Source: Nitrospirales bacterium | Lineage (GTDB): Bacteria > Nitrospirota > Nitrospiria > Nitrospirales > UBA8639 | Assembly (NCBI GenBank): GCA_963555755.3 | Contig: OY820905.2 | Location: forward strand, 288,001-352,000 | Direction: 5' to 3' | DNA: 64,000 bases | Shown: piece by piece, positions 21,259 through 49,316 of the stretch | How positions within the stretch are numbered: the first letter of the stretch is position 1 | Layout: each line of letters starts with the position of its first letter | Position numbers and translations under genes: made by a program | The notes under the pieces: model-generated | What the model was told of the DNA's origin: nothing | What the model saw: only the letters and a program-made list of their open reading frames with translations | The model's database searches: none

Positions 21259-21416
21259 TTGAGGGAAACCGGAATAGGCTGACAATGCCTACAGTGTTTG
21301 TCCCTTTCCAGATGGTTGAACATTTCTTGCTAAATATTGGAAAACCTTATAGTTTTTCCGAAACTCTAAAACGTAGTGAGTCGGGATAGGCTGACCGAGC
21401 TACTTAATAGTTAGGT
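21259..21416 (+). promoter_or_regulatory. Promoter+attI-like module type 1, without intI
   Basis: Homologous to 31879-32035; TTGCTA-17-TAGTTT (21327-21355); homology ends at GTTAG (21410). Confidence 0.75.
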
Positions 21417-21438
21417 TGTCAGGGCACAGGCGCGCACA

Positions 21439-21921
21439 ATGAGAACTACAGCGAAGAAAGGTCGATTCTTCCGGTTGGAAGAGGCAGACACAATCGCTCT
21501 GCTTCGCGAGCACAGTCTGTTCGACGAAGACGGCGATCTCATCCGCGTAGAGTACGCGAACCCAAAGCGGGAGTTCTCTACCAGGCACGCCGTTTTGGAA
21601 CTGCGCCCACGCTCGCGGATTATGTTCTACTCTTTAGGTGAAGACACAGCACGCGAAGCGGCCATTGCGACCCTGCAGAAGGCCGTTGCCATTTCGAAGG
21701 ACCTCAATCGACGACCGCTTCCGGTCCGAGGAAACTCGGATGCGACCGTGGTCATCTACAGGGAGAAGCTCGGTGGCCTCCGTGTTGTCGAGCGCCGCAC
21801 CTTCTACCAGCAGCGTAAGTACCGAGGGGACGCAAAGTTCTCGAACGCCTTCCGCGCACGTAAGATCCGAGTAGAAGAGAAGGACATGAATCGTGCAACC
21901 TACCGAAGTTCAAGCAGGTGA
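21439..21921 (+). CDS. Cassette hypothetical protein
   Basis: ATG just after the recombination point. Confidence 0.65.
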   Translation: MRTTAKKGRFFRLEEADTIALLREHSLFDEDGDLIRVEYANPKREFSTRHAVLELRPRSRIMFYSLGEDTAREAAIATLQKAVAISKDLNRRPLPVRGNSDATVVIYREKLGGLRVVERRTFYQQRKYRGDAKFSNAFRARKIRVEEKDMNRATYRSSSR

Positions 21922-22177
21922 TAACTTGCCATTAGAGCCTCCTGATAAAGTTACTATCCTATGGCTACTTAAGCATGTGCCAGTAACGTTATGTGTGGCG
22001 TTTTTCACCCTATTATTGGCGTCATTTAGTTTTGGTGTTAAAACGAGCCATATTCTCCTGGTACGCGATCTATATGGATTAAAAAAGACGCAGTCTTTAG
22101 AAGAAAATGCGCCATCTAAAAGTAAACCTAACAAGCCCATCCAGCAGACGCCCAAAAGTGACGCTGCTGATGGGTAA
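21893..22177 (+). CDS. Small cassette membrane protein
   Basis: One hydrophobic segment; runs into attC. Confidence 0.45.
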   Translation: MQPTEVQAGDNLPLEPPDKVTILWLLKHVPVTLCVAFFTLLLASFSFGVKTSHILLVRDLYGLKKTQSLEENAPSKSKPNKPIQQTPKSDAADG

Positions 22178-22185
22178 CGTTATGT
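22126..22185 (+). other. attC site
   Basis: ACCTAAC...GTTATGT imperfect palindrome; ACCTAAC complements GTTAGGT at 21410. Confidence 0.88.
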
Positions 22186-22209
22186 GCTTAGTAATGGAGG
22201 TGATGAGTT

Positions 22210-22398
22210 ATGAGTACTGCTAAAGAAGAGGTAAAAGCACTTCTGGATAAGCTTCCTGACGATTGTTCACTGGAAGATGTCCAGTATCATCTTTACGTTG
22301 TTGAAAAAATCCACAGAGGAATCGAGCGTGCCGATAAGGAAGGGGTGCTCAGCCAGGACGAGGTAGAAAGGAAGCTTAATACATGGGCCTCGAAGTAA
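22210..22398 (+). CDS. Putative antitoxin
   Basis: 62-aa acidic ORF overlapping a RelE/ParE gene. Confidence 0.75.
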   Translation: MSTAKEEVKALLDKLPDDCSLEDVQYHLYVVEKIHRGIERADKEGVLSQDEVERKLNTWASK

Positions 22399-22697
22399 AG
22401 TGGTCACCGGAGGCGGCAGAGGACCTCGAATCGATCGCGGAGTATATCGCCAGAGATTCAGAGCATTATGCCAGAGCAGTTGTAACAGAAATATTATCGA
22501 TTTCTCGTAATGTCGGTGAATTCCCTTTGATCGGTCGTGTTGTGCCGGAAGTTGGAGATGGGACGATAAGGGAAAGGTTCGTGTACAGCTACCGCTTGGT
22601 ATATCGGATCGAGTCTGAAAGAATCCTGGTTGTAGCAGTAATCCACGGCAAGCGGTTGCGAGAAAATGTCGCAGAGCGACTTGAAGACAGCACATAA
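22383..22697 (+). CDS. RelE/ParE-family toxin
   Basis: WSPEAAEDLESIAEYIA..FP.IGR..RE....YRLVY....I.V.AVIHGKR. Confidence 0.88.
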   Translation: MGLEVKWSPEAAEDLESIAEYIARDSEHYARAVVTEILSISRNVGEFPLIGRVVPEVGDGTIRERFVYSYRLVYRIESERILVVAVIHGKRLRENVAERLEDST

Positions 22698-22762
22698 CAA
22701 GCCCATCAAGCCGACGCTCATTCGCAGCGCTTCGTTCGCGCGGCTTATAGGCGACGTTAGGC
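22692..22762 (+). other. attC site
   Basis: ACATAAC...GTTAGGC; R'' complements GTTATGT at 22179. Confidence 0.88.
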
Positions 22763-23102
22763 GCCAGACATATATGTAAGGAGAAAATATGGATATATTA
22801 GGTATTGTTGGTATCGCAGTTGGCGTTGCAGGTCTTATATTTGGACTGGTTGAACACTCACGAAGAGTTAAGCTTGACGTTGCACTTCGCACACAATTTT
22901 CCACATCATTAAATCGAGTTCGGGCATTGGTAACCTACAATGATGACATAGTACAACTTACTGAAGGCCTGGATTCTCCGAAAATCACAAAGTGGGTGTG
23001 GTCAACTAACAAAGGTCTTTCTGATCTCTATGTATCAATGGTTGGTTACTATATCGCCAGCCATCCCTCATTCACATATGATGATATTAAGAATTGTAGT
23101 AA

Positions 23103-24551
23103 CTACTCAGGTGTGATGATCTTTGTAGTGAATTGTGCAGGCATAAAGGGGTGGCCGATCATGGCTTGTGAAATGGCTTGCAGCATGTTGCCGCCCTGCT
23201 TTCTCGCGGTAGAAAGGTAGCTTCGTATGCGGGCGAACTGCCTCGCGCCTTGAAGCGTTCGAAAACACCCGGATATTTTGAGGCGGAGCTTGATCATGCG
23301 GATATCCTGTTCTGCCAGATTATTAGTGAAGGGAACCTGTCTGTCATGGAGGAACGCGAGCACGGAGGCTTCATGCTCGCCAAGACGGGTGAGGAGATTT
23401 TGGGCCTTGGTCTTTTTGGGCCGGCCTCGTGACTTTTTCTGTGGCGGTGCCGGAAGGGGGTTGGCCTGCCATCCGAGGGTGAGAAGATCCCTGTATTGTT
23501 TCAGCCAGGGGGTTTTCTGTTCTTCCGTTAACTGTGCGAGTTGCTTGCTGACAAACACGTTCATCGTCAGCAACAGGTCAAACATGTGTTTGGCCCATGG
23601 TTGTTCGTGCTGCTCGAACAGGCACGTGAGTTCCCGCAAATGATGGGCGTTACAGAGGCCGTGGGCACAGTCATAGGAGAGATAGGGTTTCCAGAAATCG
23701 TGGATCAGGCGGCCAGCAAAATCCGGGAGGATCTGGAACTGCTCGATCGCCTCTCTTCCCCGTTTGGCGTGCACACCGTAAAAGGTCAACGTGGCCGTGC
23801 TGGCACTGTGGAGCCAGTGGAGCGTCCCGGCCGTGCGGACGCCGCTTTCATCGGCATGGAGGATGGGACTCTTGCCGAGCGCTTCTTTGACCGCAGTCTC
23901 GAACGGCGCGAGGTGCTCATAACTTCGGCGGGAGGCCTCGTCAATGGTGGCGTCGCTGACCGAGGCGCCATACAGATCAGCCATCATCTGGCTGACACGG
24001 CGTAAGGGGATCAACTGTTGGTTCTGGAGGTAGACCAGGAGGCTGCGAAATCTGGGACCGTACTGTGCCGGCGCAGGCAGGTCATCAGGAAATGACGCCG
24101 TGACCGAGCGGCCGCATTGGGGGCAGGTTTTGATTGCTCCCCGATATTCGGTGACGTCGAGTTTTGGCTCCGGCAGTTCAAAGAGCTGCCGGCGTTCATA
24201 GCCGGTGACCGTCTCGTTGGTGAGGTCGGCATGGCAGGAACAGGAGTGAACAGGCAGGTGGACCAGGTGGTCTGGGGTTTCCACCTGTTTTAACGTCTGG
24301 CCGGCATGTCCCTGTTGGCCGCCCGGCTTTTTCCCGGAAGGTATGCGCAGGCTCTTGGTTCGGGGCTTGGCCGGTCCATCGGACGAGGGCGGTTTGCTGC
24401 TGTTGCGACTGTGTTGGTCGAGCCGCTGTGCCAGTTCGGTGACATGCGTGGTCAGCGCCTGCCCCTGTTCCTGCAGCGCCAGGATCAGTTCGACGAGCGC
24501 CTCGGGGTTGCTCTTGGCCAGGATGAGGAGTGCGTCGCGGGTGAAGGTCAT
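23103..24551 (-). CDS. IS66 transposase
   Basis: NSSKPPSSD, Zn ribbon, HADESG, CNAHHLREL, TNNLAEQDIR. Confidence 0.93.
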   Translation of the reverse strand: MTFTRDALLILAKSNPEALVELILALQEQGQALTTHVTELAQRLDQHSRNSSKPPSSDGPAKPRTKSLRIPSGKKPGGQQGHAGQTLKQVETPDHLVHLPVHSCSCHADLTNETVTGYERRQLFELPEPKLDVTEYRGAIKTCPQCGRSVTASFPDDLPAPAQYGPRFRSLLVYLQNQQLIPLRRVSQMMADLYGASVSDATIDEASRRSYEHLAPFETAVKEALGKSPILHADESGVRTAGTLHWLHSASTATLTFYGVHAKRGREAIEQFQILPDFAGRLIHDFWKPYLSYDCAHGLCNAHHLRELTCLFEQHEQPWAKHMFDLLLTMNVFVSKQLAQLTEEQKTPWLKQYRDLLTLGWQANPLPAPPQKKSRGRPKKTKAQNLLTRLGEHEASVLAFLHDRQVPFTNNLAEQDIRMIKLRLKISGCFRTLQGARQFARIRSYLSTARKQGGNMLQAISQAMIGHPFMPAQFTTKIITPE

Positions 24552-25435
24552 GGCTTGCTCCGGCAGAGGGCCTGTCGGAAGTGGCGGATGAGGGGATAGA
24601 GATAAATTGCCTTCACCGGCACGCGCAGAGCCTTGTCACGGTCCTGCCGGGACCGGCCTTTGGTCTGCCCGACATAGAGCCAGTTCGCGGCCTGATAGCA
24701 GATACCTTTGAAGCGGTCTCGCTCCACAAAGGTCTCCACCAAGTGGACGGGATGGCCGTATTTCTCGATCCAGTCCTGCCGGAGACGTCTCATGACCCGG
24801 CCCAGGAGATGGCTGGCCAGATGCGGCACACGCACCCAGGGCAGGATGAGAAAGCGGGTATTGTTGGTCATGAAGTTGAGGTTGGCGGCTCGGGTGTCCG
24901 GCTCCCAGCCGATAAAGGTGTCGCGCGGGGTGGTTTTCCAGGCGGCGGAACCGAAGAGGAGGCAGGCCAGATCCTGCCCGGAGCGATCCCGCACCAGGTA
25001 CTTGAGATGTTCACCGACCGTTCGGGTGAACCCGAGGTAGTGATGGTGGCTCAGGTAATATCCCACACAACTGGCTTCGTAGGAATGTGAGGTTGGAATA
25101 TGAATGGACAGGGGCGTCAGGGTCTTGAGAGCTGCGTCGATGTGCGGGGCTTCGGGAGGCATAAACCCCTTTCGGAAAGGGGGGAAGATGTTGCGTCGAG
25201 AGGCGACACGAATCGGGGGCAGCTTCAGGAGCCCGCGATGTTCGAGTTTGTCGATCATGCTGCGGGCGGCAAAGGTTTTCAGTTGTCCGGACGGGGTCTG
25301 CCAGCCCCAGTGCCGACAAATATGCTGGGTTATTTTATGGCGGCTCCAGTCAGGGTGCCGGCAAACCAGATGGCGTAACCAGCACAGATCAGATTGGGGG
25401 AGGCGACGACCTTGACATGTAATCGCTTCATTCAT
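24548..25435 (-). CDS. DUF4338 (DruA-like) protein
   Basis: HHYLG, RD.FIGW, NNTRFLILPW, LASH.L, ETFV...RF.G.CY.AANW. Confidence 0.85.
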   Translation of the reverse strand: MNEAITCQGRRLPQSDLCWLRHLVCRHPDWSRHKITQHICRHWGWQTPSGQLKTFAARSMIDKLEHRGLLKLPPIRVASRRNIFPPFRKGFMPPEAPHIDAALKTLTPLSIHIPTSHSYEASCVGYYLSHHHYLGFTRTVGEHLKYLVRDRSGQDLACLLFGSAAWKTTPRDTFIGWEPDTRAANLNFMTNNTRFLILPWVRVPHLASHLLGRVMRRLRQDWIEKYGHPVHLVETFVERDRFKGICYQAANWLYVGQTKGRSRQDRDKALRVPVKAIYLYPLIRHFRQALCRSKP

Positions 25436-25664
25436 GGCCCCGATTATGCCATGGGTGGAGCCGTTAGTCCAGAAAAAAATCAGGCTATAGAAAATTGACC
25501 TGAGTAGTTACGAATTGTATTGAAAGTGGAATTATTACTACTGCTTGGGAAGAACAAAACTGGAGAGAACATGTTGCAGTACGCAAAGAAAATAAAAGCA
25601 CGGCACCACCAGAAGCCATAATTAAGGACAACTCTATTCGGAGATATATAGTATGAATTTATAT

Positions 25665-26993
25665 GGTTCCTCGTCATATCATGTGGAATTGAAGAGGAAA
25701 CGTATAGGCGCTGCGATCATGTAAATCATGGTCATAAAGGTCTGGGGGTTTCGATAGCCTCGTGCTCTTGAGCGAGCAGCCTGAAATAACGAATTCAGCC
25801 CTTCCATACGGGCATTGGAGTAGGTTGACGTCCAACGCTGGAGAATCCGTTGGGTGTGGGTTTGCAGTGTGTTCAACGCTTTTCTGATGGCTTCGAGTTC
25901 TGGGGCATCGCTCAGCATGGAGTGGGCGTGATGAAGAAAGTGTGTCAGTCGCCACCGAGCGGCACGGAGTGTTTGAGCCTGCCTGACCCATCGCACCTTT
26001 TCCTTGATCCGCCAGGCAATGGTGGTCAGAAAGTCTCCGTCCTCCAATTCCTGCAAAGCCAGCTTCTGTTTTTCCGTTAACCCCTTGCCTTTCAAGACCG
26101 CCCACCGCGTGGCTTGGGGGAGTTTGGTCTGTTGCTGCTCACGCTTGCGCACCGCCTCGACGGCTTGAGTAAACAGTTGCACCACATGGAACCAATCCAC
26201 TGTGACAGTGGCTTGCTCAAACTCTTCTTCGACCGCGGCCCAAAAAGCCGGCGACATATCACACACGACTTCCAGCACGTTCTCCGCACGGCCGCCATGC
26301 GCCTTCAGCCAGGCCTTGAAATCCTTCACGGTCTGCTTGCCCTTGCCGGGCGTGGCAAACACAACAGGCTGCGTCCGGCGCTTCATGTCCACAAACACGG
26401 TGACATAGTTGTGGCCTCGCTTGGAGGCGGTTTCATCAAACCCAAAGGCTTCCAATTCCCGCAAGTCCAGTGCTTTCAGCGCTTGGCCAACGTAGTGCTG
26501 AATGATGCGCCACAATCGCTTGTCCCTCTCGCCCACCAGCCGGGCCGTGGCCGCAACAGGCATCTCCCGAACCAGACTCATCACCACCTGTTCAAACAGT
26601 AAGGTGAACCGACTCCCTTCACGCGCCCACGGAACTTCAATCCACTTGACCCCGTGCTCGGGGCACCGGATGCGGGGCCCCTTGGCGGTCAGCAGACAGT
26701 GGTGCTGAAAGAAGTTCAGGTGTCGCCAACGAAGCTCTTTGAAGTCATGCGCTTTACACTCCTTGCCGCACTCAGGACAGGGAAACAGAGAACCCCGATC
26801 CGAGGCCAGCTCAAGGTGTAACTCATGCGGGTTCTTCTCGGTATCCAGATGTTGAGAAACCACTTCCCACGGCGCACTCATCCCCAGCCCTAAAGAAAAT
26901 ATCTCACGTTCGTCCATCATGATCGCCCCCTTTTATTGGGGACGAATTAAGCCACATCAAACCAATTAATTCCACACCTCATGACGAAGAACC
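25665..26993 (-). mobile_element. ISL3-family IS; transposase 25679-26920
   Basis: TIR GGTTC; TSD ATTTATAT; FDET..RGHNY, CDMS, DWFHVV, NARMEGLN. Confidence 0.92.
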
Positions 26994-27008
26994 ATTTATA
27001 TTACGTAT

Positions 27009-28881
27009 CAGTAGTGTCCCAACGTTTGCTGTCTGGATCGATCTAAGTTATTGATGAAGCAGGCATTAATCATGATTTTTCCTGGTCTCGATTTGAACTG
27101 CACGAACTGGTTTTGCCACCCTGCGAGGAATCTTTTTGCAGGAGGGTTGAATGAACCAAGGCCAGTTGGTATTTGCACAATTGACGCAACATCTGCCGCT
27201 CACGACATTCCGACGCTGTGTGGCACGGTACCAAGGGAGCTATTGTCAAATCTAGTGTCTGAAGCGTTACTCACGCGGCGACCGGGTCCGTGGTTGTCTG
27301 TTCGATTCCATCGATAAATTGAATGTCCGCAACGACTTTGGGCCACTCTCGGAATCCTCGCAAGCGCCTCCATGTTTTCTCTGCGCATTGACCTAACTTG
27401 AACATCCTGTGCAATATGCCATCTCGCGTGAGACATCCCTTTGTGCGGATCGTCCGATGCCGAATCGTTCCAAAGGTCGATTCGATGGGATTGGTGGTCC
27501 GGAGACTCGGCCAATGGGCAGCCGGAAACGTATAGAACATCAGGAGCTCCTCTCGATCTTTCTGCAAACAGGCTGTGGCCTTGGGATATTTGAGCGCATA
27601 GGTGTTGAGGAATACATCAACGGCTTGCTCCGCCAACCCTTTGGTCTCAGACCGCCAGATGTCTTGTACGGCCTGCTTGGCTTTGGATTGCACACTTTGG
27701 GGCAGCGCATTTAAGACATTCTGTGTCTTGTGGCACCAACACCGTTGATGCCGCGTCACCGGGAAGATTTCTTCCAGGGCCGCCCAGAAGCCGAGGGCGC
27801 CATCCCCAACAGCCAAGGCGGGCGCGTTCAGCCCGCGGGCTTTCAGATGCCACAGGACTTCCCGCCAACTTTGGGTGGACTCACGAATCCCGTCTTCCAT
27901 CGCTAAGAGATGTTTCTCCCCGGAGGCATTCATGCCGATCACGACCAATGCACCTAAGCGCTGCTCTTCAGCTCGTACGCCACTCTAGATCCCATCGACC
28001 CAGATATAGACCCACTGGTCGGCATCGAGTCGACGTTGTCGCCAGAGGGTATACTCCTTCCGCCAGATCTGCTTGAGCCGAGCCACCGTACTGGCGGACA
28101 GCCCCTTGGCCTCTGGGCCCACGAGGACTTCCAGAGCCGGTTGCCTCTCTCCCGTCGAGATGCCTTTTACGTACAGCCATGGGATCGCCGCTTCCAAGCT
28201 AGCCGACTTGCGCACATACGGGGGGACCAGCGCCGAGTGAAACGTGACCGGTTTGCCCTGGCGACTCCGTACTTTTGGGACTTGTACGGTCACCGGCCCA
28301 ATGCCCGTCTGAATGTCGCGCGTCGGATGATGGCCGCTGAGGACAACCCTCGCATGCCCCTGTTCCGTTGACTGGTCTGCATAGGTCGCCAAGAGCTCGG
28401 CCACCTCTGCTTTCAGGGCTTGGGCAAGAAGCTTCTGCGCCCCTGTTCGAATCAACTCCGTCAGCGAATCGGTCCTTCCTCGATCTTCTTCCTCTGATTT
28501 GGTACATTCCTGCATCGTGGCGTCTCTCCTTTGTGGTTGTGGTGGATGTCTCGCAACACCCATTTCAACCCGAGACGCCGCGTGTTTTCAACTGATCCTA
28601 GACACTACTTTCAAGTATAACTCTACCAAGGCGAGCACAAGGTGAAAGCGTTTTCGTGTCTGGACCAATTTTTTTGTATGGCCTTTGCACAGCTGACCTT
28701 TCGCGAGAGCCTACGCGACATCGAAGCCTGTCTGCGTGCCCAGCGCTCGAAGTTGTACCACCTAGGCATTCGCGCCGTCGTGTCGCGCAATACCTTGGCC
28801 AATGCCAACGCTGTGCGAGACTGGCGCATCTATGCCGACTTTGCGCAAAGTCTGATGGGGATCGCTCGACAGTTGTACATA
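27009..28881 (+). mobile_element. Truncated IS4-family element (DUF4372 N-terminus from 27151), interrupted by IS256 and cut by IS3
   Basis: CAGTAGTGTCC end; MNQGQLVFAQL..RYQG joins EHKVKAFSCLDQF..RESLRDIE. Confidence 0.8.
27237..28623 (-). mobile_element. IS256-family element; transposase broken by an in-frame TAG at 27985-27987
   Basis: TSD TACCAAGG; VDGI*, GDGALGFW, QRCWCHK, RTTNPIES. Confidence 0.88.
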
Positions 28882-30997
28882 GAGGTGGTCCTAGGAATTC
28901 GGACAGGGTTTTAGGCTACAATTGATGACCAAAGGAGGGTCATGGATTATGAGTCGAACCCGAAAGAATCATCCGGCCAATTTTAAGGCCAAGGTTGCGT
29001 TGTCCGCGCTCCGAGAGGATGCGCCGCTATCAGAGCTGGCTGTAAAATATGGCGTGCATGCACCGTCATTCATCGCTGGAAACGTGAAGCCCTGGCCTCA
29101 ATGGCAGCCGGGTTTTCAGGAACGCTTGCGAAGAATCACACCGATCAGGAGGCCCACATCCATGAGCTGCACGCCAAAATTGGCCAACTGAGTGTGGAAC
29201 GGGATTTTTTAGTCGGTGCCTCCAACCGGTTGGGGTCAGGAGGCGTCAAGAAATGGTAGAACCATCCAATAAGCAGCTGAGCCTCAAGACGCAATGTCAG
29301 TTGCTCTCCATCAGCCGCTCGGGCTGGTATTATGATCCCCAAGGGGAATCCCCGCTGAATCTCAAGCTCATGCGGCTAATCGATGAGCAATTTTTAACCA
29401 CGCCCTATTATGGCAGCCGTCAGATGGCACGCTGGTTACGGCGCCAGGGGTATGGCGTGGGGCGTCACCGGGTGCGGCGCTTGATGGCGTTGATGGGCGT
29501 GCACGCGATTTATCAGGAACCGCGCACGAGTGCGCCTCACCCGCAGCATCGGATCTATCCCTACCTCTTGCGGAATCTGGCTATCACCCGGGCCAATCAG
29601 CTCTGGTGCACAGATATCACCTACAGTGCGCCCAGCCTTCGGAGGTGTCATGGAGGACACTGCCGGAGCTTGAGCATGTTTGGAATGTAGAAGGACTGCC
29701 TATGGAAGGATGAGTCCGATACCCGCTTTTCGCTACGGAAAAGCGAGAGCCGAAACGGCGGTGACCTGCTATGCACTGGCAGGGTGACGGAGCCCGTGGG
29801 AAACGGGGCGTGAGGCGAAGTCGTTACGCCAAGATGCGTCTCTAGGCTGAGTGCGGGAAGGTTGAGGGACACGAACCGGTTCATGCGCGTCTGTGGGTTG
29901 AAATGTCACCACCTCCTACACGGCTTAATAGGGGGTTCACGGACAGATATCGGGTACAGGTATGAGCTGATATCGGGTGGCGGTGCGAAATGTAAGCGTG
30001 CCGCCACTGAGCAGCGTGGAGTGCGTAGCTAGCACGCGGCGTCTGTGACGACTTGCGGCAAGCAAGGAGAAAGATTGCGACCGGCAACCTCCCCCGCATG
30101 GTGGAGTCCAACATGTGAACTGGGGAAGGCGATGAAGGGGATGCCAAGGGAGTGCGATCCCGATGCCCCCATCGCTGGCGGAGCTCCCGTAGTAGTCGGA
30201 GACAGGGAAACCCTGTTACAGGGCGAAGGGGAGCAGCTCAAGGAGCTTGCGGGGCAGATTAACTGCCGGGAGAGAGGTGAAGACCTTTGAGAATCAGTGA
30301 AATGCAACGCAAGCTGGCGACGTGGTCGGCCGAGAGGTCGCCATGGCCATGACTCATGCTTGAGTGGAGAGCCGTATGCGCTGAGAGGCGCACGTACGGT
30401 TCGGGGAGGAGAAGCGGGGAAATAGCATATGACTACGCCCTGCTTCTTACTCTACTCCCGATCAAGCGAGGATTTTTATATCTGGTGGCGATTATGGATT
30501 GGCAGAGTCGCAAAGTGCTCTCCTGGCGCCTGTCCAATACGATGGATACGCATTTCTGCGTGGAAGCGCTGGAGGAGGCGCTGGCCTTGTATGGCGTGCC
30601 GGAAATATTCAACACGGATCAAGGCTCGCAATTTACGTCGTGTGAATTCACCTCGGTGCTGAAAGAACACGGGATCAACATTTCCATGGATGGAAAAGGT
30701 CGGTGGATGGATAACGTGTATATTGAACGGCTTTGGCGGAGCCTGAAATATGAATGTGTGTATCTGCATGCCTTTGAGAACGGCTCTCAGGCTCGTCACC
30801 AGATTGGCGCATGGCTCAGCCATTACAACCAAACACGGCCTCACTCGACTTTCGATGGACAAACCCCCGATGAGGTCTATAATCTCTCTCATCTTCAGAG
30901 GCCCGACCCTGGAGAGAAGAAGCAAGCGGCATAACCTCAACCATCAAGTTGTAGCTTAACGTTGCCGCAAACCTGTCCAACAAAGTGGGACCACCTC
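28882..30997 (+). mobile_element. IS3-family element (orfA frameshifted near 29060; orfB split by intron)
   Basis: IRs GAGGTGGTCC..GGACAGG; YGSRQM, WCTDITY|IP, NTDQGSQF, DN.YIERLWRSLKYE. Confidence 0.88.
29626..30455 (+). ncRNA. ORF-less group II intron (830 nt)
   Basis: 5' GTGCG; domain V GAGCCGTATGCG-CTGAGAGG-CGCACGTACGGTTC (~30369-30403); domain VI ending AC; exon join restores DITYIP. Confidence 0.92.
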
Positions 30998-31881
30998 GGT
31001 TCATCATTTACAACAAGCGTCAACCAGCCGAGATGAGTGAAGCCGAGATCGGCCAGTTCCTTTCAAGCCTGGTGTGTGAAGGGCTCGTCAGTGCCTCGAC
31101 TCAGAACCAAGCTTTGAACGCCCTGTTGTTTCTGTACCGGGAAGTTCTCGGTAAGAATATCAAGTACGTGAACGGGGTTGTCCGTGCCAAAAAGCCAAGA
31201 AGGTTGCCCATAGTTCTGACAACAGAGGAAGTCAAAAGAGTGCTTCGTGGCTTAAGCGGCACGCCATGGTTGATGGACCTGCTCATCTATGGAGGGGGAT
31301 TGCGTTTGATGGAGTGCTGCCGTCTGCGAGTCAAAGATCTTGACTTTGCGCAGAATCAGGTTGTCGTGCGGAGTGGCAAGGGGAATAAGGATCGCTACAC
31401 CACACTTTCAACTGCCATCAAGGAACCTCTCCTTCGACACCTCCAAGGGGTCAAGGGGCAACATCAGACTGATCTCAGGAAAGGTCTGGGGAGTGTCGCC
31501 TTACCCCATGCCTTTGAGCGGAAATATCCCAATGCCGGGAAGGAGTGGGGGTGGCAATGGGTGTTCCCGGCCACAAGCCACTACACCGACAGAATCACTG
31601 GCGTCAAGCGCAGGCATCATCTGCATGAGTCCGTTTTGCAACGAACCTTCAAGGAAGCGAGACTCAAAGCCGGGATCGCCAAATCGGCAAGTTGTCATAC
31701 GCTTCGCCACGCCTTTGCGACCCACCTCTTGGGGGACGGGTATGATATTCGGACGGTCCAAGAGTTGCTGGGTCACAAAGATGTGAGCACAACGATGATC
31801 TACACCCATGTGTTGAACCGAGGCGGGAAGGGAGTCCACAGTCCGACCGATCGACTCGGATTTGGCCTGGAGAACCTTTGA
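30998..31881 (+). pseudogene. intI: Integron integrase, 5'-truncated
   Basis: GLRLME, GKGNKDR, IntI patch ALPHAFERKYPNAGKEWGWQWVFPA, HTLRH, LGH..V.TT.IYTH. Confidence 0.92.
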
Positions 31882-32035
31882 GGGAAACCGGAATAGGCTG
31901 ACAATCCCTGCAGTGTTTGTCGGGTTCCCAAGAGTGGTAAATTTCTTGCTAAGTGTTGGAAAAGCTTATAGGATTTCCGAAATTCCAAAACGTACTGAGT
32001 CGGGATAGGCTGACCGAGCTACTTAATAGTTAGCT
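31879..32035 (+). promoter_or_regulatory. Promoter+attI downstream of the intI 3' end
   Basis: TTGCTA-17-TAGGAT (31946-31974); ATAGGCTGAC direct repeats; GTTAGCT at 32029. Confidence 0.78.
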
Positions 32036-32048
32036 GGACAAGAAATAG

Positions 32049-32435: not shown

Positions 32436-32448
32436 TGCTGAGCACGCC

Positions 32449-32529
32449 AGCTAACAATCCGTTGAAGCTGTCGGTCACGCTCCTTGCTTGCGCAAGGGTC
32501 GTGCCCGCAGCTTAACGACAACGTTAGGC
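32449..32529 (+). other. attC site
   Basis: AGCTAAC...GTTAGGC. Confidence 0.88.
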
Positions 32530-32566
32530 GCTAAAAAAGCCAACATAAGTTGGCAAAGGACTTTTC

Positions 32567-33469: not shown

Positions 33470-33475
33470 TGCAAA

Positions 33476-37318: not shown

Positions 37319-37320
37319 TT

Positions 37321-37676: not shown

Positions 37677-37704
37677 GCCCTCGTATCGTCACAGCAGGAG
37701 CGAC

Positions 37705-39388: not shown

Positions 39389-39468
39389 CACGAGCTTGCA
39401 GTCGGACTGGGCAACAGCCAGGCGTTACGACCTTTGGTAGTAAGGGAATAAGGGGGTCAAGATAAGGG

Positions 39469-41372: not shown

Positions 41373-41378
41373 AGATAA

Positions 41379-41528
41379 GGGTGGCAATTCTTGACTTCAT
41401 ATATTAACTTCCTTCTGGTCGGCCCGCGGACGTGGGCGCAATCGTTGTGTGAGAAAGTTGATGTAGAGTCTGGAGCTCGATACGCGTGTGGCCATGGGTC
41501 AAAAGGTATTAACTCACAACCTCACCCC
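41379..41528. mobile_element. Element D, copy 3 (left end hit by ISAs1)
   Basis: Homology to the other D copies. Confidence 0.78.
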
Positions 41529-41533: not shown

Positions 41534-41713
41534 TATTCAAATAGGTGGGATTACCCGGATCCGCATAAGATGCCAAAATAATTGGACTCGTAGACGTAAC
41601 CAATTGAAAAGACAACGATTCTGGCGTATTGTTCAGAAGACTCGCTGCGTGTTATCCGGACAGAAACTCGAAGACCCGTGCTCTTACACGGATTCATTTA
41701 AACACTGTTATGC
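41534..41713 (+). promoter_or_regulatory. Promoter+attI-like module type 2, copy 2
   Basis: TTGAAA-17-TATTGT (41604-41632); GTTATGC at 41707. Confidence 0.75.
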
Positions 41714-41743
41714 CTCCTCAATTAAAAACCAGGGAGCGATTCT

Positions 41744-42313
41744 ATGAGAACAATTAGATTGTTGATTATCGTCATCGCAGTAAGCAATGCCAACACGGCT
41801 ATAGCGCAGCAAATCCCACCACCCGTTGACCTCGGTATTCAGAACATTCTCCAAGAAACGGAAGTCTGGTGCTGGGCGGCCGTAGCTCAACAAATAATAC
41901 TCGCCTTAAACGGACCTCAGGGTACGCCACCACAATGCGCGATGGTTGCTATAGCTAATAACGCAAACCCTCAAATCTGCTGCCAAATACCGCAACAGTG
42001 CCTGGTCGGAGGTAGTCTTCAACAGATACAAGGTCTAATTGCACATTTCGGTGGGCACTATTCAGCCATTGCTCCGCCAGCAGATCCCATGACTATATAT
42101 AACTCGCTAGCATCGGGGAAGGCGATAATTATGGCAGTACGGTCTAGTCCTTTTAGTGGTCACGTCATTGTAATACGCGGGATGCAATGGGTTCCAACCC
42201 AGTTTGGCTTCCAGCCGGTACTACATATAAACGATCCAATGTCGTTTTTTACGCAACCAGTACCATTTCAGAATATCGTTGGATATTGGCAAGCGGCGAT
42301 AGTCGTTCACTAG
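41744..42313 (+). CDS. Exported papain-like cysteine peptidase (cassette)
   Basis: Signal peptide; QETEVWCWAA, GHVIVIRG, INDP. Confidence 0.75.
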   Translation: MRTIRLLIIVIAVSNANTAIAQQIPPPVDLGIQNILQETEVWCWAAVAQQIILALNGPQGTPPQCAMVAIANNANPQICCQIPQQCLVGGSLQQIQGLIAHFGGHYSAIAPPADPMTIYNSLASGKAIIMAVRSSPFSGHVIVIRGMQWVPTQFGFQPVLHINDPMSFFTQPVPFQNIVGYWQAAIVVH

Positions 42314-42430
42314 ATGCATAACAAATCGTTCAACGCGGACGCTAGATGCATAACAAATCGTTCAACGCGGACGCTTGACTGTGGCTTGCCGTTTGCTGCG
42401 GCTTCGGTCGGCCTCAATCAAGCGCCGGAA
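42310..42430 (+). other. Truncated attC with 32-bp tandem duplication
   Basis: CTAGATGCATAACAAATCGTTCAACGCGGACG x2; no GTT R' box. Confidence 0.75.
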
Positions 42431-42451
42431 AGGTGAGGGGGCAATAAGGGG

Positions 42452-44355
42452 CAGGGCTATTTCATATTAAAGTGTAACTTTATAGATAATAAGGAATAAT
42501 CGATTTAGGCTGGCTTTTTCTTTTCGTTTACGGCATACTCTTTTGCATGCCAGACGAATCGCCAAGCGGACAGCCGGACATTGATCTGAGGCAAGTCGTG
42601 GTTCGCCCAATTGTCCGAGACGAAAAGGACGCCTTCAAGACCCTTCTCGACAGACACCACTACCTCGGTCATGCCCCGCTGATTGGCCAATCGATACAAT
42701 ATCTCGCCTGTGTGCAGGATCGCTGGCTGGCCTTGCTGGTGTTTGCGGCGGCGGCCCTCAAATCGAGACCGCGAGACCACTGGATCGGCTGGCCCCCCTG
42801 TTTTCAATGGCAACGACTCCATTTACTGGCCAACAACACCCGGTTTCTCATGCTGCCGGGCTGTTCGCAAAAGAACCTCGCCTCGAAAGTCCTGTCGCTC
42901 TGCGCGAAACGGATCTCGTCCGATTGGCAACTGTACCACGGCTACCCCTTGCTCCTCTTAGAGACCTTCGTCGATCCTGCCCGCTTCACCGGGACCTGCT
43001 ATCGGGCCGCCGGGTGGCACGAGCTCGGTCTGACACGAGGGTTTCGCAAGTCGAACACGTGTTATGTTCAGCATGAGAGACCGAAGCGCATCCTAGTCGT
43101 GCGGCTGCATCCCCAAGCCCGAGAGATCCTTGCACGCCCGATGCTTGATCAGCCCTATCAGAAAGGAGAAGCGCCTCAGATGAGATTGAATACAAAACAG
43201 ACGGACTCCCTCTTTACGTATGTGGTGCAGCTGACCGATCCCCGCCATTTGCAAGGGCAACGGCACACCCGACGCGCCCTCACGGCGATCATGTTCTGTG
43301 CCACCTTGTGCGGCGCGCGCGGCTATGAAGCGATCTCGGACTGGGCCCAGCAGTTATCGCAGCCGATGCGCAAGCGGCTAGGCTGTACTCAGCGAGGGGG
43401 GCGCTACCTCGTCCCGAGCCGCAGCACTCTTTACCGCTTTATCACGGCCGTCGACCCCTGTGAAGTCGATACCCTGCTCGGCCGGTGGCTGGACACCTTC
43501 GGCGGGGAGGATCAGGGCATTGCCATTGATGGGAAGACCATGCGGGGGACGTCGAAGGTCCCAAGCGAACAGCCCCACGTCCTCAGCGCCGTCACCCATC
43601 AAGCCGGGCGCCACCTCACCCAAAAAAAGTTCACTCCAAGACCAATGAGATCCCCTGCGTGCGGCCCCTGTTAGATGCGCTCGAGATCGCAGGGAAGGTG
43701 ATCACGGCGGATGCGCTCCTCACCCAGAAAGAGATTGCCGAGTACCTGGTGCACGAACGCGGCGCCGACTTCGTCTTCACCGTCAAGGGAAACCAGCCCA
43801 CCTTGAAGCACGACATTGAGGCCTTAGCGTTGCGAGCACGCCGGTGCGATTATGCCACCACCGAGAAAGGCCATGGGCAGATCACGACCCGCAGGATCTG
43901 GTGCGATGACTCCCTGAATGCCTATGTCAACTTTCCTCATGTCCAGCAAGTCTTCTGCATTGAGAGGGAAGTGACGCATCTCAAGCAGGGCCTCACGACC
44001 GTCGAAGCGGTCTGCGGTGTCACGAGTCAGTCCAAAGACAAGGCGGGGCCGAAGACCATCCTCTCGCAAAACCGAAAGCATTGGAGTGTGGAGAATAAGC
44101 AGCATTATGTGTTGGACGTCACCTTTGATGAAGACAGGAGTCAGATACGAAGTCTCAATGGCCCAATGGTCATGACCTGTCTGAGACGCTATGCCATCAG
44201 TCTCTTACGCCTGAAAGGCTACACCAATATCGCGCAGGCGTGTAGACTGCTCTGGGGCAAGCCCCATTTAGCCATCCGCATGGCCCTGCCCTGAAAAAGA
44301 GGGCACAAAAAACCTCATGGAATCCCTTGCTTATAAAAAGAATGAAATGGCCCTG
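42452..44355 (+). mobile_element. ISAs1-family element with DUF4338 fusion, copy 2 (ORFs 42547-43674 and 43659-44294)
   Basis: TSD CAATAAGGGG; near-identical to copy 1. Confidence 0.92.
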
Positions 44356-44361
44356 CAATAA

Positions 44362-44511
44362 GGGGGGACAAGTCTTGACTTCATATATTAACTTCCTTCT
44401 GGCCTACCGCATGACGTGAGATCAAACGGTTTTTGGGAGAGTCGAGGGAGACCCTGGAGCTTTATACGCCTGTGGCCATGGGCCAAAAAGTATTAACTCA
44501 CAACCTGACCC
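44362..44511. mobile_element. Element D, copy 4
   Basis: GGGGACAAGTCTTGAC...CTGACCC. Confidence 0.78.
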
Positions 44512-44663
44512 ATTCATTTGCCAGGCATCTGCTGGAAGGCGGCAACGATATCAAGACAGTACAAGAACTGCTGGGTCATCGAGATATGAAAACCACAATT
44601 ATCTCCACCCATGTTCTCAATCGTGGGGCAGCTGGAGTCCGCAGTCCGCTGGATGGGTTGTGA
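44511..44663 (+). pseudogene. intI: Degenerate intI 3' fragment
   Basis: [30 protein letters not shown]; catalytic Tyr lost. Confidence 0.85.
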
Positions 44664-44846
44664 GCCTATTCAAATAAGTGGCATTATCCTGATCCGCATA
44701 AGATGCCAAACTAACTGGACTCGTGGATGCAACCAATTGAAAAGACCCCGGTTCTGGCGTATTGTTCAGAAGACTCGATGCGTGTTATGCGGACAGAAAC
44801 TCGAAGACCCGTGCTCTTACACGGATCCATCTAAACATTGTTAGGT
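44664..44846 (+). promoter_or_regulatory. Promoter+attI-like module type 2, copy 3
   Basis: TTGAAA-17-TATTGT (44737-44765); GTTAGGT at 44840. Confidence 0.78.
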
Positions 44847-44866
44847 TTCAGCGGAAGATCTTATCG

Positions 44867-45262
44867 GTGCTTGCTCCGAATCAATTTCAGGTTAACGAAG
44901 CTTGGATCGCGTTCAAGCTAAATGACGCTCCGATTTCCATACAGGAAGATGGCGACTTTAACGTTCTGGCTCTAATGGATGCAGCGAGTTGCTTCATTCT
45001 AGGCACAGAGTTAGTGCCCGCAGATTCGACAGAACCATCTCAATTGGAGTCCATGCGATTGCTGAAGGGTGGGCAATCTCATAAAGATCAATTGCCGAAA
45101 AAACTCTTAATTCCAAACAAGCAAATTGCAGATATACTGACAAGAGAAGCCGAGCGGATCGGCATCGTCGTAGTTCGTGTTCCAGAAGAGCAGCTTTTGG
45201 CGTTCATAGATGAAGCACGTGAGGGATTTCAGGAGCACGTAAATGGGGGCCGGACGCACTGA
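44867..45262 (+). CDS. Cassette hypothetical protein
   Basis: GTG start after attI; followed by attC. Confidence 0.65.
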   Translation: MLAPNQFQVNEAWIAFKLNDAPISIQEDGDFNVLALMDAASCFILGTELVPADSTEPSQLESMRLLKGGQSHKDQLPKKLLIPNKQIADILTREAERIGIVVVRVPEEQLLAFIDEAREGFQEHVNGGRTH

Positions 45263-45263
45263 A

Positions 45264-45362
45264 ACCTAACAAGCGCGATCGAGACCGACGCTTGGCTGCG
45301 CCCTTCCTTCGCTACCGCTTCGGTCGATTGCAATCAAGCGCGGCTCATCGCGGACGTTAGGC
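45264..45362 (+). other. attC site
   Basis: ACCTAAC...GTTAGGC; CTGAAACCTAAC complements GTTAGGTTTCAG. Confidence 0.9.
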
Positions 45363-45428
45363 TGCATAGCCCACCCTATTCGTGAAGTTACTTGCCCGCC
45401 CGAGGAGGAAAGTCGAAATATGATTTCA

Positions 45429-46440
45429 TATGCCTTCCCATTTGACTAAGGTTAGTCCCTAGACTAGTCTGCTGGACTATGGACACAGGGTATGCTGCTG
45501 ATATCTTGGATTTTTCTGTTAGGTTCCACACCGAAGAAGCGTGCTTCGAGTACTTGCGGGCGATTCGGTGGCCAGACGGGTTTATGTGTCCAGCTTGCGG
45601 TCATCGCGGTGGTTGGTGGCTCAAAAAATATTTCCGGTTTGAGTGTTCGTCGTGTCATAGACAGACATCACCGCTAAGCGGCACAGTGATGCATAGATCG
45701 CACTTGCCGCTACGGCTTTGGTTTTGGGCTGCCTATTTCGTCTCCACGCACACACCTGGCATCAGTGCTGTGCAATTGCAGCGTCAACTCAGTATCAAGA
45801 AGGTGGATAGCGCCTGGTATTTGCTCCACAGATTGCGACGAGGAATGGTACGACAGAACCGTGAACGGCTCGCAGGAACAGTTGAAGCCGATGAAACCCA
45901 TATCGGTGGACCGGTAAAAGGCAAAACGGGCCGTGGCGTCGCGAAAGCGAAAACCAAGACGTTAATAGCCGGAGCCGTAGAAATTGTCACGTACACACAA
46001 GGGGATCACTTTCGAGAGAAAGCAGGGCGTTTACGATTAGCGATTCTTCAAGACGCTGGAGAGAACGAGATCAAAGCATTCCTCAATAGCCATGTCGCTG
46101 AGGGCAGTAAGATCAAGTCCGATGGTTGGAAGGGATACTCGGCAAAAGCCTTGGCAGGATACGAACACCTGAGACGGACCCAGGGTGACCCAGCAAGTGC
46201 TGGGAAGCACGCTCCACACATCCATAGAGCGTTCGGCAATCTGCAGACCTGGCTGAACGGGATTCACCATGGAGTGGATTCAAAATACCTGCAACACTAT
46301 CTTGATGAGTTTGTCTTTCGCTATAACCGCCGTGAGACTCCAATGAGTACCTTCCAGAGTTTGTTGAAAATCCTGACCAGCAGCTCAAAACCCTTGGGAT
46401 TCAATAAACTGAAGCAACCTTAGTTAAATGGGAAGGCATA
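45429..46440 (+). mobile_element. IS1595-family element; transposase 45479-46423
   Basis: TIR TATGCCTTCCCATTT; TSD TGATTTCA; Zn ribbon, VEADET, SDGW, YLDEF.FRYNRR. Confidence 0.92.
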
Positions 46441-46517
46441 TGATTTCAAATCCCAGGATACTCAGAGTGCGACCCCCTTTACAGCGAGGTACTGTGTTGT
46501 TGCCAACTCGCGAAACG

Positions 46518-47171
46518 ATGCTCCTGATTAGCCGCGCATGCCTTGCGACGGCATTGCTCGTGATGATGGCCGCCTTGGGTCAGTCGGTTCACGCCACAGG
46601 CGGAAGTCAGACGAGGTTTCAGCGCATTTCGACGCAGTTCATCGCAGCATTGGGTACTCCAGGTGCAACCTCCGGGAGCGGCGCGCAGTCGTGGGGTCTC
46701 TGGCCTCTGGATCCGGGCCCTCGTGGAGTGAGGTTGAGCAGCTTTGAGCAGTTAGAGGAGGCGGGTGGAGTGGCCCCCGCACGCTGGAAATTCGACCACA
46801 CAGACTGGTGGCTGGAGGAACACGGCTTAATAATGGAGCAGCCGAGATTTCCGATCCCTCCTGGCAAATACCTGGTCACGGGTAACCGCGAGGTCACGAC
46901 CGTGCTGACCATTCATCCCGCTGACAAGGATGGAAATAGGCGCTGGGAGCTCGATGACCACGCGACGCTCTATGACGTGACGCACTTGGGCTGCCGCTCC
47001 GCGCGGTATACACCGATGACCGGTGACGGTTCGTGTTCTCCGGTAAACGTGCAGAAGACTGCGTTTCCGGTCACTCCAGGGGGGACGATGCCTACAGTCG
47101 AGGGCTGCAAGAAGCAAGACTATGCGGTTCTCTTCGTGATCGCTGTGGTAGTGAAAAACGAAGGTCGGTGA
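46518..47171 (+). CDS. Exported cassette hypothetical protein
   Basis: Signal peptide; followed by attC. Confidence 0.7.
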   Translation: MLLISRACLATALLVMMAALGQSVHATGGSQTRFQRISTQFIAALGTPGATSGSGAQSWGLWPLDPGPRGVRLSSFEQLEEAGGVAPARWKFDHTDWWLEEHGLIMEQPRFPIPPGKYLVTGNREVTTVLTIHPADKDGNRRWELDDHATLYDVTHLGCRSARYTPMTGDGSCSPVNVQKTAFPVTPGGTMPTVEGCKKQDYAVLFVIAVVVKNEGR

Positions 47172-47205
47172 TGCCGGCAAGATTCGTAGCGTATAGCGAG
47201 ATGTC

Positions 47206-47278
47206 GCCCAACAAGCGCAGGCAGTCGAGCAAACCACTCGCTACGCTTGCGGTCTGCCGCTGAGGCGTTGCGTTAGAT
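47206..47278 (+). other. attC site
   Basis: GCCCAAC...GTTAGAT imperfect palindrome. Confidence 0.72.
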
Positions 47279-47307
47279 GTCACACGCGACTAAAGGGCTA
47301 ACTCGAT

Positions 47308-48182
47308 ATGGAACAAACGACAGAATTTCGAGAGATTACTGCGAATTCGGAATCACAGCAGCCAGGCCTAAGCTTCCTGCTGACGTTCATAAGGGCACCT
47401 CTAAAAACCGTCCTTTTCCGTGATGGCGGCGTCAGTCGCGTGCTCACATCCTCATGTATTCGCCCATACACTCCGGTTTTCCGCGCGCGGCTTCCTTGCC
47501 CTCACAAAAAATGCCTGGTTTTTAGAGGTGCCCACAACATGTAACCTGCTCTGTGCGACAATTTTTCAGGTTCTGAGTCATATACCTCCGTGGAAAGAGG
47601 ATTCACCGATCGAGGATTTTACAGGAGGCATCCTCTGGATGCTGAGCTTAACTTGCCTGCTGATTGCATGTCGTTACACATCCTCTAAGATCGAGGCTGA
47701 TTTTTTGGCTGATGTCATGTGCTGCCCTTTCTGTACTGGCGATGGATGAGATATTTGCATTCCACGAACGTCCCGAACAACAGGGATTATTCAACGACGA
47801 CTATTTTAAGGTAATTTGCTGGCTCGCGACGGCCTTCGTATTCCGCCTTGTCTTCCGCATGGAGGAGCCTTCTCTTACTGCCAGGCGTGCCATATTCACA
47901 GGCTATCTGTTCCATAGCCTGTATATTTTGGTTGAGCTAGGGGATGGGGAGTTTTTTCGAATACCTTTTCTATCGATACATCTTCTTAAGTGGTCGGAGG
48001 AATTTTTCGAACTCTTTTTCCTGGTGTCATACCTGTTAGCTTTTGTCCTTATCCACATGAGCCATAGTAATGATAAAGAGAGAGTCGGCCAGAGGGAAAC
48101 TTACCTAAATCCTGCACTAGATATGAATGCACTGCGTTCGGATCGGCATTGTGTCTCGAAGGGGTTCGACGGATTGGTCTAG
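47308..48182 (+). pseudogene. Cassette membrane-protein gene broken by MITE A and a frameshift near 47685
   Basis: Frame continues after removing the MITE, then shifts; MDE...FHE membrane motif. Confidence 0.6.
47393..47533 (+). mobile_element. MITE family A, copy 3
   Basis: 141 bp, same TIR. Confidence 0.92.
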
Positions 48183-48365
48183 AGAGCCCGGACATGGTGG
48201 AGTTACTCGAGAATGAGCTTACGATCGAAGGTAAACCATAAGCCTTCTCACAACCGCATGGAGCGGCCACAGTATGCACAAAGTGCCTGAAGTGAAACGG
48301 CAGCCGCGTGCCGCTCATGCGGGACATTAGACCACATCCGTGACCTGCAGAGGAGGTTCAAGACG

Positions 48366-49316
48366 ATGACCAGCTTGCGAACTTTTCACCGTGTACTCCT
48401 TCTATTCGCGCTGGTGCTCTTCAGCGTTGCGTCAACAGTCTTTGCCCAGGCTAGTCGGACAGTATCGATTCACCAACTAAGCGACGATTACGGTTTCCCG
48501 TACGGTGGCACTCAGTCCATGAATCTTAGTGGCTTCGTGGGATACAAGGGACGTCTCTTTATCGTGGGTGACAAAGGACTTGATCGAAGTCTCTATGAGA
48601 TTCGTAAGGAGGGAACGCAGTGGCGCATCATTTCCCGGGTTCCCCTAAAATTCAGTAGTCCGTCTGATTTGGAAGGGGCATTCTACTCTGCCACCGGGTT
48701 GTTTCTGGTAAACGAGAGCCAGCAGCGCGTGTACTGGTTTGATTTCGATGGAAACAGTGCGAAACGGCGACGATTGACGATTGATTTCCCTCAGTCAATG
48801 AATTCGGAGAATTGGGGTAATGCAGGATTGGAGGGCGTTGCGTACGATGATGAACGTGGCCTTCTATATCTTGCAAAAGAGCGATCGCCACGAGCAATAC
48901 TGGTTTTCGCTGTAAAGGAATCAGACGGATCCAGTGCGTTCATAAAGCAGTTTGACATACGACCTCCAGCCGGTGCTTCGGGCACGCATAGCTTTTCAGA
49001 TCTGTATTTCGAGAACGGTTTTCTCTATGCGCTGGAACGACGTTCATTGTCAGTCGCAAAAATCGACACAGTAACCGAACAAGTCGTCGGCCGCCTCGAT
49101 TTCAGCTGCATCATCGATACGAATGGTGGCCTCTACGATGGTGATCCCAATAGATACGGGTTAGCGGAGGCCTTGTTGCTCACATCTGACATGGTCCTCA
49201 TCGGACTCGACAACAACGGGAAGCCGATCAACGATGCTAACAAGTTCGCGCAGCGTTTCAATCTGAATGGCACGCAGCCGACTATTTTGCAGGTTCCCAG
49301 GCCTGCGGGCTTCTAA
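48366..49316 (+). CDS. Exported beta-propeller protein (SdiA-regulated/YjiK-like)
   Basis: LSG, DLEG, NAGLEGVAYD..L.LAKERSP; preceded by degenerate attC end ATTAGAC (48326). Confidence 0.7.
   Translation: MTSLRTFHRVLLLFALVLFSVASTVFAQASRTVSIHQLSDDYGFPYGGTQSMNLSGFVGYKGRLFIVGDKGLDRSLYEIRKEGTQWRIISRVPLKFSSPSDLEGAFYSATGLFLVNESQQRVYWFDFDGNSAKRRRLTIDFPQSMNSENWGNAGLEGVAYDDERGLLYLAKERSPRAILVFAVKESDGSSAFIKQFDIRPPAGASGTHSFSDLYFENGFLYALERRSLSVAKIDTVTEQVVGRLDFSCIIDTNGGLYDGDPNRYGLAEALLLTSDMVLIGLDNNGKPINDANKFAQRFNLNGTQPTILQVPRPAGF

Follow-up and report, generated by a model that had tools for sequence, protein, structure and literature searches.

Reverse (inverted-integrase) integrons have been described from Treponema denticola, Chlorobium and Blastopirellula (PMC6557892, PMC4889954). 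Clusters of attC sites lacking an integrase (CALINs) roughly match complete integrons in frequency and tend to be interpreted as degraded ones (PMC9024848), and action of the integrase IntI in trans has already been proposed (PMC9668308, PMC4889954, PMC12444791). The two CALINs of Ca. Nitrospira inopinata are the only ones given for Nitrospira in the available text (PMC9024848). In Xanthomonas, intI has been lost repeatedly, lineage by lineage, through stop codons and deletions (PMC12444791), and defective class 1 integrons flanked by integron mobilization units (IMUs) have been moved by a transposase acting in trans (PMC3575428). The present study concerns a stretch of 64,000 nucleotides (the window; contig OY820905.2, G000:C1:288001-352000) from a Nitrospirales bacterium, whose genome (G000, 4.62 Mb in 2 contigs) is 99.4% complete. 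An island dense in insertion sequences (IS) as well as MITEs (miniature inverted-repeat transposable elements), adjoining an ABC-transporter operon, carries here five modules, each with a putative cassette promoter (Pc) and an attI site, and none with an intact intI. We hold with moderate confidence that these are tandem, integrase-free platforms of reverse integrons (predicted Pc plus attI), likely copied after the loss of intI and likely loaded by IntI acting in trans.

All five modules were found where the original prediction, made from this DNA alone, had placed them, at 21259 and 31879 (type 1) and at 37494, 41534 and 44664 (type 2). Together with the intI pieces, they are as follows.

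21259..21410, + strand: type-1 module T1-a, a post-intI segment with putative Pc and attI and without intI; crossover between G and TT at 21410.
30985..31881, + strand: integron integrase gene truncated at its 5' end, running in the direction of the cassettes; it keeps catalytic motifs and the IntI insertion and is short of the first ~30 residues.
31879..32029, + strand: type-1 module T1-b, putative Pc and attI directly behind the intI stop codon; crossover between G and TT at 32029.
37320..37493, + strand: type-2 intI 3' remnant, 57 codons long and 86% to L076's intact IntI.
37494..37670, + strand: type-2 module T2-a, with a palindrome at -156, TTGAAA-17-TATTGT at 37567-37595 and the attI core; crossover between G and TT at 37670.
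41534..41707, + strand: type-2 module T2-b, putative Pc and attI without intI; crossover between G and TT at 41707.
44511..44663, + strand: type-2 intI 3' remnant of 50 degenerate codons, catalytic Tyr lost.
44664..44840, + strand: type-2 module T2-c, putative Pc and attI; crossover between G and TT at 44840.

The type-1 copies are identical at 131/151 positions, and among the type-2 copies 37494 and 44664 agree at 170/177, the other pairs at 158/174 and 157/174. Homology between copies stops at GTT(A/AG), the G lying at 21410, 32029, 37670, 41707 and 44840, and each module is then followed by a different first cassette, whose longest R'' complement to the junction within 3 kb measures 8, 9, 11, 7 and 12 bp, respectively. 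When 3000 random genomic GTTs were treated alike, these lengths were reached in 5.9%, 2.2%, 0.8%, 19% and 0.4%. Every R'' match opens an attC-like hairpin behind the last open reading frame (ORF) of the cassette. Coordinates and alignments thus agree with the predicted arrangement of two module types whose homology ends exactly at GTT, each copy with its own first cassette and a complementary R''.

The predicted orientation, with intI running in the direction of the cassettes and attI behind its 3' end, is seen at 30985-32029, and intI is eroded as unevenly as had been described, from the near-complete gene (30985-31881) through 57 codons and 50 degenerate codons to complete absence (21259 and 41534). 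The near-complete ORF is an IntI-family tyrosine recombinase with the IntI insertion, reaching 406 bits against TIGR02249 (cut-off 265) with model positions 1-27 missing and aligning to IntI4 (2A3V) from residue 36; its first helices have been replaced by the end of an IS3-family element. Since even this truncated gene scores above the cut-off of the profile model, the array behind T1-b would be classed as a complete integron. At the other four modules there are intI remnants or nothing, and the window contains no intact intI in cis. A tblastn search of G000 with the window IntI and five full-length homologues, a check that the original prediction had proposed, returned only the three window pieces and, beyond them, XerC/D-like matches below 32% over their length, so that no full intI was found elsewhere in this almost complete genome.

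The platform is widespread. With up to 3 mismatches, the core of the type-2 attI gives 157 matches in 48/115 family genomes (0 for a reversed-pattern control), 32 of these 48 carriers having two or more sites and the richest 13. Among titled records with this core, 53/59 are Nitrospirota, and the genus g4 (38 genomes) has no type-2 sites. IntI is above the cut-off in just 3/115 family genomes, one of which is the broken copy of the window, and G003, G083, G084 and G095, assembled in 1-2 contigs each, hold 7, 4, 4 and 5 sites with no IntI above the cut-off. Co-oriented sites within 10 kb of each other occur in 12/48 genomes, among the 150 matches listed out of 157. Scans of GTDB and metagenomes yielded 168 unique type-2 sites, and where at least 1.3 kb of upstream DNA was available (80 sites), one IntI query detected a near-full intI at 2, a remnant at 21 and none at 57.

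At the sites labelled L076, L096 and L020, type 2 stands directly behind a full-length, co-oriented intI (with a stop in the N-terminal extension in L096 and L020); type 1 stands behind the intI of the window itself and, in G014, behind a remnant. Moreover, an R'' match of at least 8 bp is present at 36/98 of the type-2 sites with at least 1.5 kb downstream, compared with 3.3% when the cores are swapped. Because the segment follows the 3' end of intI and its junction, with a crossover between G and TT, is complementary to R'', it is the attI region of a reverse integron, identified by context and junctions. The inverted L-like box of type 2 lies 4 nt from GTT; the corresponding distance in attI1 is 5 nt.

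In the type-2 attI region, two copies of an 18-bp palindrome occur (-156, -23), and the promoter-like box TTGAAA-17-TATTGT scores 9/12 in all three window copies. Across 61 type-2 copies, which are related sequences, a box of at least 8/12 stands between -120 and -90 in 46 (4.7 expected), nearly all at about -103. A box resembling the consensus of integration host factor (IHF; at least 8/9) overlaps the -35 element in 28/61 copies. The scan of type 1 gave no promoter at threshold, the boxes read by eye scoring 8/12 and 7/12; the sigma70-like promoter with a 17-bp spacer that had been predicted for every copy therefore stands, as a sequence match, for type 2 in all three copies and is weak for type 1, where it fails the scan. 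As a separate observation, in L061 and L142:5755 internal intI deletions join N-terminal to C-terminal codons and keep a TTGAC-17-CAAGAAT box, and in these cases the intI promoter could read into the cassettes.

A promoter-like box conserved at a fixed place would suit an adaptive segmentation, in which internal promoters are kept to re-start transcription along a long array, a role proposed for promoter-bearing ORF-less cassettes in other integrons (PMC6557892). Contigs from the RNA-library run X9 also cover the first cassettes behind 31879, 37494 and 41534, which as contigs only is weak evidence; they equally cover intI, IS elements and the neighbouring ABC gene, and leave 33870-37139 uncovered, absence from contigs being no evidence either. 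Against such an adaptation, 36/48 carrier genomes have no tandem pair among the matches listed, the segments of the window are parted by IS elements, the type-1 promoters fail the scan, and the IHF-like box over -35 may be the feature that is conserved. We consider this explanation unlikely. The corresponding purpose put forward originally, that the layout avoids loss of expression along a single array, gains support from no test: the modules are mostly dispersed single sites, IS elements interrupt the arrays, which are short, and three modules are preceded by an internal attC in truncated form.

The arrays behind the modules, and one cassette gene upstream of T2-a, are listed below.

21411..25660, + strand: array a, with cassette 1 (attC 22126-22185), a ParE-type toxin-antitoxin cassette (attC 22692-22762) and a third cassette, whose attC was not found and which an IS66/DruA-ORF element interrupts at 23099-25511.
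32030..35657, + strand: array b, with four intact attC (32449-32529, 33359-33469, 33990-34120, 34826-34897) and a last cassette, with a SnoaL domain, that has no recognisable attC.
35850..37125, + strand: thiaminase-I-like cassette gene with only the left half of an attC.
37671..39420, + strand: two-ORF cassette with an R'' of 11 bp and a truncated attC.
41708..42430, + strand: papain-like protease gene cassette (weak PF12385 match, under 1e-4), with a truncated attC and a 32-bp tandem duplication.
44841..49316, + strand: array e, four cassettes with attC at 45264-45362, 47206-47278 and 48245-48332, interrupted by IS1595 at 45429-46441, the last gene being cut off by a MITE.

An attC model (R1) built from 18 sites, 8 of them from the window, finds 9 full-length attC in the window at E<0.001, of which 8 are its own training sequences, and by this model the window has the two or more attC sites that define a CALIN. 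Genome-wide it gives 13 matches, all behind attI modules (150/1343 candidates scored; an attC at 2864k missed). Most cassette proteins have no match in Pfam, NCBIfam or PADLOC. The thiaminase-I-like gene (35850-37076), on a low-GC cassette, reaches 99 bits against TIGR04541, under the cut-off.

The original prediction had itself raised the possibility that the repeats are assembly artefacts, and the many IS and MITE copies, together with the lack of a single record spanning the whole region, would be in keeping with it. However, the module copies differ by 4-13%, and unitigs of three studies (P1, P2 and P3, one of which may be the source of the assembly itself) match the assembly with 0 differences across several module junctions, namely in 30928-34042 (intI, T1-b and cassettes), 35621-37400 (MITE, thiaminase gene, MITE and intI remnant), 37609-39459 joined to 41373-41499 (T2-a, cassette and MITE) and 41664-42339 (end of T2-b and cassette). 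An artefact is thereby largely refuted, and we give it next to no credence. Run X8 lacks the ISAs1/DruA-ORF element at 39460-41372, so that the empty site is seen. In run X1, contig depth is 31-68 over much of 19000-23098 and 59 over 41718-42371, with 145-223 in neighbouring single-copy DNA, the same stretches being nearly even in run X3; this may reflect deletions in a subpopulation, depth being a poor measure.

The mobile elements around the modules, several of which bear on the origin of the copies, are given here without strand.

21044..21258: high-copy MITE (82 near-full genomic copies) that abuts T1-a at the place expected for the end of intI.
25665..30997: IS stack of ISL3, an IS256-family element, an IS4 fragment and an IS3-family element, its right end cutting intI.
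29626-30455: ORF-less intron remnant inside the IS3-family transposase.
35666..35813: copy 0 of a MITE subfamily labelled E, with an 8-nt right junction in common with module 41534.
37169..37318: MITE E copy 1, an internally deleted Y1/RAYT-type transposase element with ~23-bp terminal inverted repeats.
39450..41528: MITE E copy 2, with an ISAs1/DruA-ORF element inserted at 39460-41372.
44364-44511: MITE E copy 3, its left end hit by a second, inverted ISAs1/DruA-ORF copy (whole span 42447..44511).

Every type-2 module of the window stands directly behind a copy of MITE E, which in turn stands behind the left half of the attC of the preceding cassette. The E copies are 80-89% alike and occur upstream of modules only, and copy 0 may mark a sixth module that has lost its attI. 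Around the modules, no paired identical MITEs with a target-site duplication, the arrangement of IMUs, were seen. Y1/RAYT ends were also considered as a general cause of intI loss and rejected as such (18/109 sites against 76/706 control windows, p 0.11, with a crude end motif searched upstream), and the Y1/RAYT link is kept as a local feature; G000 as a whole has 17 Y1_Tnp matches. Of this genome, 11% lies in 21-mers of at least 6 copies, and such 21-mers lie 150-650 nt upstream of 7/10 attI modules, compared with 25% of ORF starts, the modules not being independent.

Several further observations concern the elements themselves. The intron remnant, which we take to be of group II from its end motifs, is missing from an intron-free joint (29625>30456) present in runs X1 and X3. 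Both ISAs1-like copies (39450-39460; 42437-44364) sit inside the left terminal repeat of different MITE E copies, which suggests a target preference. The IS66-like element (23099-25511) and the ISAs1-like elements (39460-41372, 42447-44357) each carry a DruA-family (PF14236) domain, either in an ORF of its own or joined to the N-terminus of the transposase, and the very high contig depth of these IS types suggests many copies. A further weak attC and a MITE E copy at 51467-51909 extend the island to ~52 kb.

A genome-wide search with the modules, likewise proposed at the outset, brought to light five type-2 sites elsewhere in G000 that had been missed, raising the genome to eight type-2 sites and ten modules; 3/5 of the new sites keep an R'' match of at least 8 bp, and one lacks an intact cassette. 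A tree was built from 62 type-2 segments aligning over at least 140 nt (duplicates removed, the copy at 3470k added). The eight G000 copies need 5 changes on it, and a single clade of all eight is rejected by the approximately unbiased test (p-AU 0.0003). Copies 37494 and 44664 are sisters (97/81), and the test does not reject a clade of the three window copies (p-AU 0.54); for subsets of 3, 4 and 6 copies, p-AU is 0.54, 0.29 and 0.14, non-rejection not showing that they are clades. The local amplification that had been predicted is therefore compatible with the three window copies, which lie behind the same MITE subfamily, and does not extend to all eight type-2 copies of the genome.

Alternatively, each module might have arrived separately, as a complete integron imported horizontally into an IS-rich, neutral hotspot, and then eroded by itself, with no amplification in place. 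This is true of type 1 relative to type 2 and of the genome's eight type-2 copies taken together, and 37494 is closer to foreign copies (93% identical) than to 41534 (91%). For the window copies, however, it meets the sister relation of 37494 and 44664, the MITE-intI junction at 44664, which can be derived from that at 37494 by one short deletion, and the shared MITE subfamily, which the six nearest foreign copies lack. As a general account we regard it as very unlikely. Between 37494 and 44664, identity rises along the unit, from 126/148 in MITE E through 138/153 in the intI remnant to 170/177 in Pc-attI (Fisher p 0.0007 and 0.045).

Signs of cassette turnover at platforms without intI are seen across genomes, where three sets of sites share an intI-free junction. 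The first comprises 15 sites in seven genomes with 13 different first cassettes, 11 having the exact junction, and its unit of ~330 bp joins a promoter-like box and the 5' untranslated region and first codons of intI to the last ~110 bp of the attI region. The second comprises 9 sites with 9 cassettes, whose upstream context is hardly shared (one pair of 9). In the third (6 sites, 4 first cassettes), the unit in L171 and L240 opens with GTTAGGC exactly at the crossover of an upstream attI, and in L054 it stands behind an attC half, with a different cassette behind the unit's own attI in each of the three. As side observations, two intI-free junction families (L054, L060, L171 and L047, L058, L064, L066, L090, L098) begin, some 200-270 nt upstream of GTT, at hairpin motifs that resemble each other (GACCCAAAGC..); in L090 the motif stands behind a small tyrosine-recombinase gene, and it may be the site of another recombinase carrying the platform. 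In L183 (1604-1689, minus strand), the attI core is duplicated 85 bp apart around a 5' fragment of a cassette, and a hairpin-ended element stands in place of the intI body.

Our reading would place the loading of these sites after the loss of intI. The main competing explanation, that of a frozen graveyard, has complete reverse integrons loaded first and an allele with intI deleted spreading afterwards by homologous recombination, with the intI promoter or a MITE as one arm and Pc-attI as the other, and no integrase action after the loss. The 15-site set does have arms of homology flanking its deletion, decay has reached many junctions and attC sites, the patchy identity of 37494 and 44664 resembles conversion, and exchange of cassettes by homologous recombination has been reported for the SGI1 integron (PMC7056807). 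Such a spread would need many intact integrons coexisting in each lineage, however, and a near-full intI is found at only 2/80 sites; in the nine-site set the unrelated upstream contexts would leave little 5' arm for recombination. On balance we find it rather unlikely, the strongest of the alternatives nonetheless.

Several results weigh against loading by a visiting integrase. An R'' of at least 7 bp is kept at only 7/15, 5/9 and 3/6 sites of the three junction sets, and the off-window sites of G000 likewise indicate that many sites are decaying. The contexts of L171, L240 and L054 could also have arisen from ordinary insertions at the upstream attI, with the unit itself immobile. The identity gradient between 37494 and 44664 is patchy, including ~135 consecutive identical bases, so that gene conversion fits as well as selection on the platform. 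Moreover, related genomes are not independent and metagenome-assembled genomes can miss mobile DNA. None of the joints listed for four runs, whose contigs drop rare variants, was a cassette excision at attI or attC; no source of IntI in trans was found, the type-2 core having 0 matches in viral contigs, and among plasmids the matches covered the intI part only, so that no phage or plasmid carrier was found. What had been predicted as modules of two reverse-integron lineages capturing cassettes independently is nevertheless upheld by the junctions and the family data, IntI in trans being most likely needed.

If the platforms were loaded after the loss of intI, the following course can be envisaged. 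Because intI and the array are co-oriented, deletions can take intI and leave Pc-attI, and they would have spared it, sometimes together with the intI promoter, ahead of the cassettes. A platform lying downstream of another attI or attC is inside an ordinary attC-ended cassette and can therefore be copied or moved, which might occur through the usual IntI chemistry or when MITE copies recombine with each other. In the window, the unit of MITE E, intI remnant, Pc and attI was likely duplicated locally, each attI would have taken up cassettes while a complete integron was transiently present, and later deletions ending at MITE E would have cut the attC before three modules, thereby fixing those cassettes. 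More tentatively, Nitrospirales may possess non-autonomous mini-integrons, that is, Pc-attI units of 150-350 bp that move about nested in cassettes, reach up to 13 per genome and remain active landing pads through rare passing integrases. Were this true, many CALINs would be sites of live capture, with integrase and platform evolving separately, the one as an autonomous and the other as a non-autonomous partner.

CALINs are read as degraded because attI is undetectable outside classes 1-3; IntegronFinder matches only class 1-3 attI exactly and is thus blind to the present sites. Here, a recognisable attI family has roughly 40 orphan sites for each site with a near-full intI, often in tandem and with signs of turnover after intI loss, which suggests that nitrifying bacteria acquire cassettes with no integrase retained, and integrase-less 'dead' integrons may still live. 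Defined sites and a natural intact integrase (L076) make the servicing of CALINs in trans directly testable. A search of the open-access literature, by title or abstract start and without supplements, found no report of multi-copy orphan attI platforms.

Like reverse integrons, the locus has intI co-oriented with the cassettes, attI behind its 3' end and cassettes that end in attC; unlike them, it has five platforms in one region and ten in the genome, none with an intact intI. Like CALINs, it consists of attC arrays without an intact integrase, but unlike CALINs as defined, the arrays retain a conserved attI and a promoter-like box, so that they could capture cassettes besides donating them. 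In the complex class 1 integron In104, a second attI reportedly lies behind a truncated intI1, and an intact intI1 is said to be present. Shared with In104, which belongs to Salmonella genomic island 1 (SGI1), is the tandem attI pair with a cassette of its own behind each attI (PMC7056807); In104 is a single clinical structure in standard orientation, whereas the layout described here recurs without an integrase, in 12 genomes among the matches listed. Inactivated or lost intI is common to Xanthomonas integrons, but these occupy one locus (ilvD), where the same intI lesion usually goes with identical arrays (PMC12444791), whereas the present sites occupy many loci and one deletion junction goes with different first cassettes. 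As in IMU-flanked defective class 1 integrons, MITEs adjoin defective platforms (PMC3575428), here without paired identical MITEs and target duplication. The layout works like a reverse integron minus its integrase; it falls short of a complete integron, and the retained attI sets it apart from a CALIN as defined.

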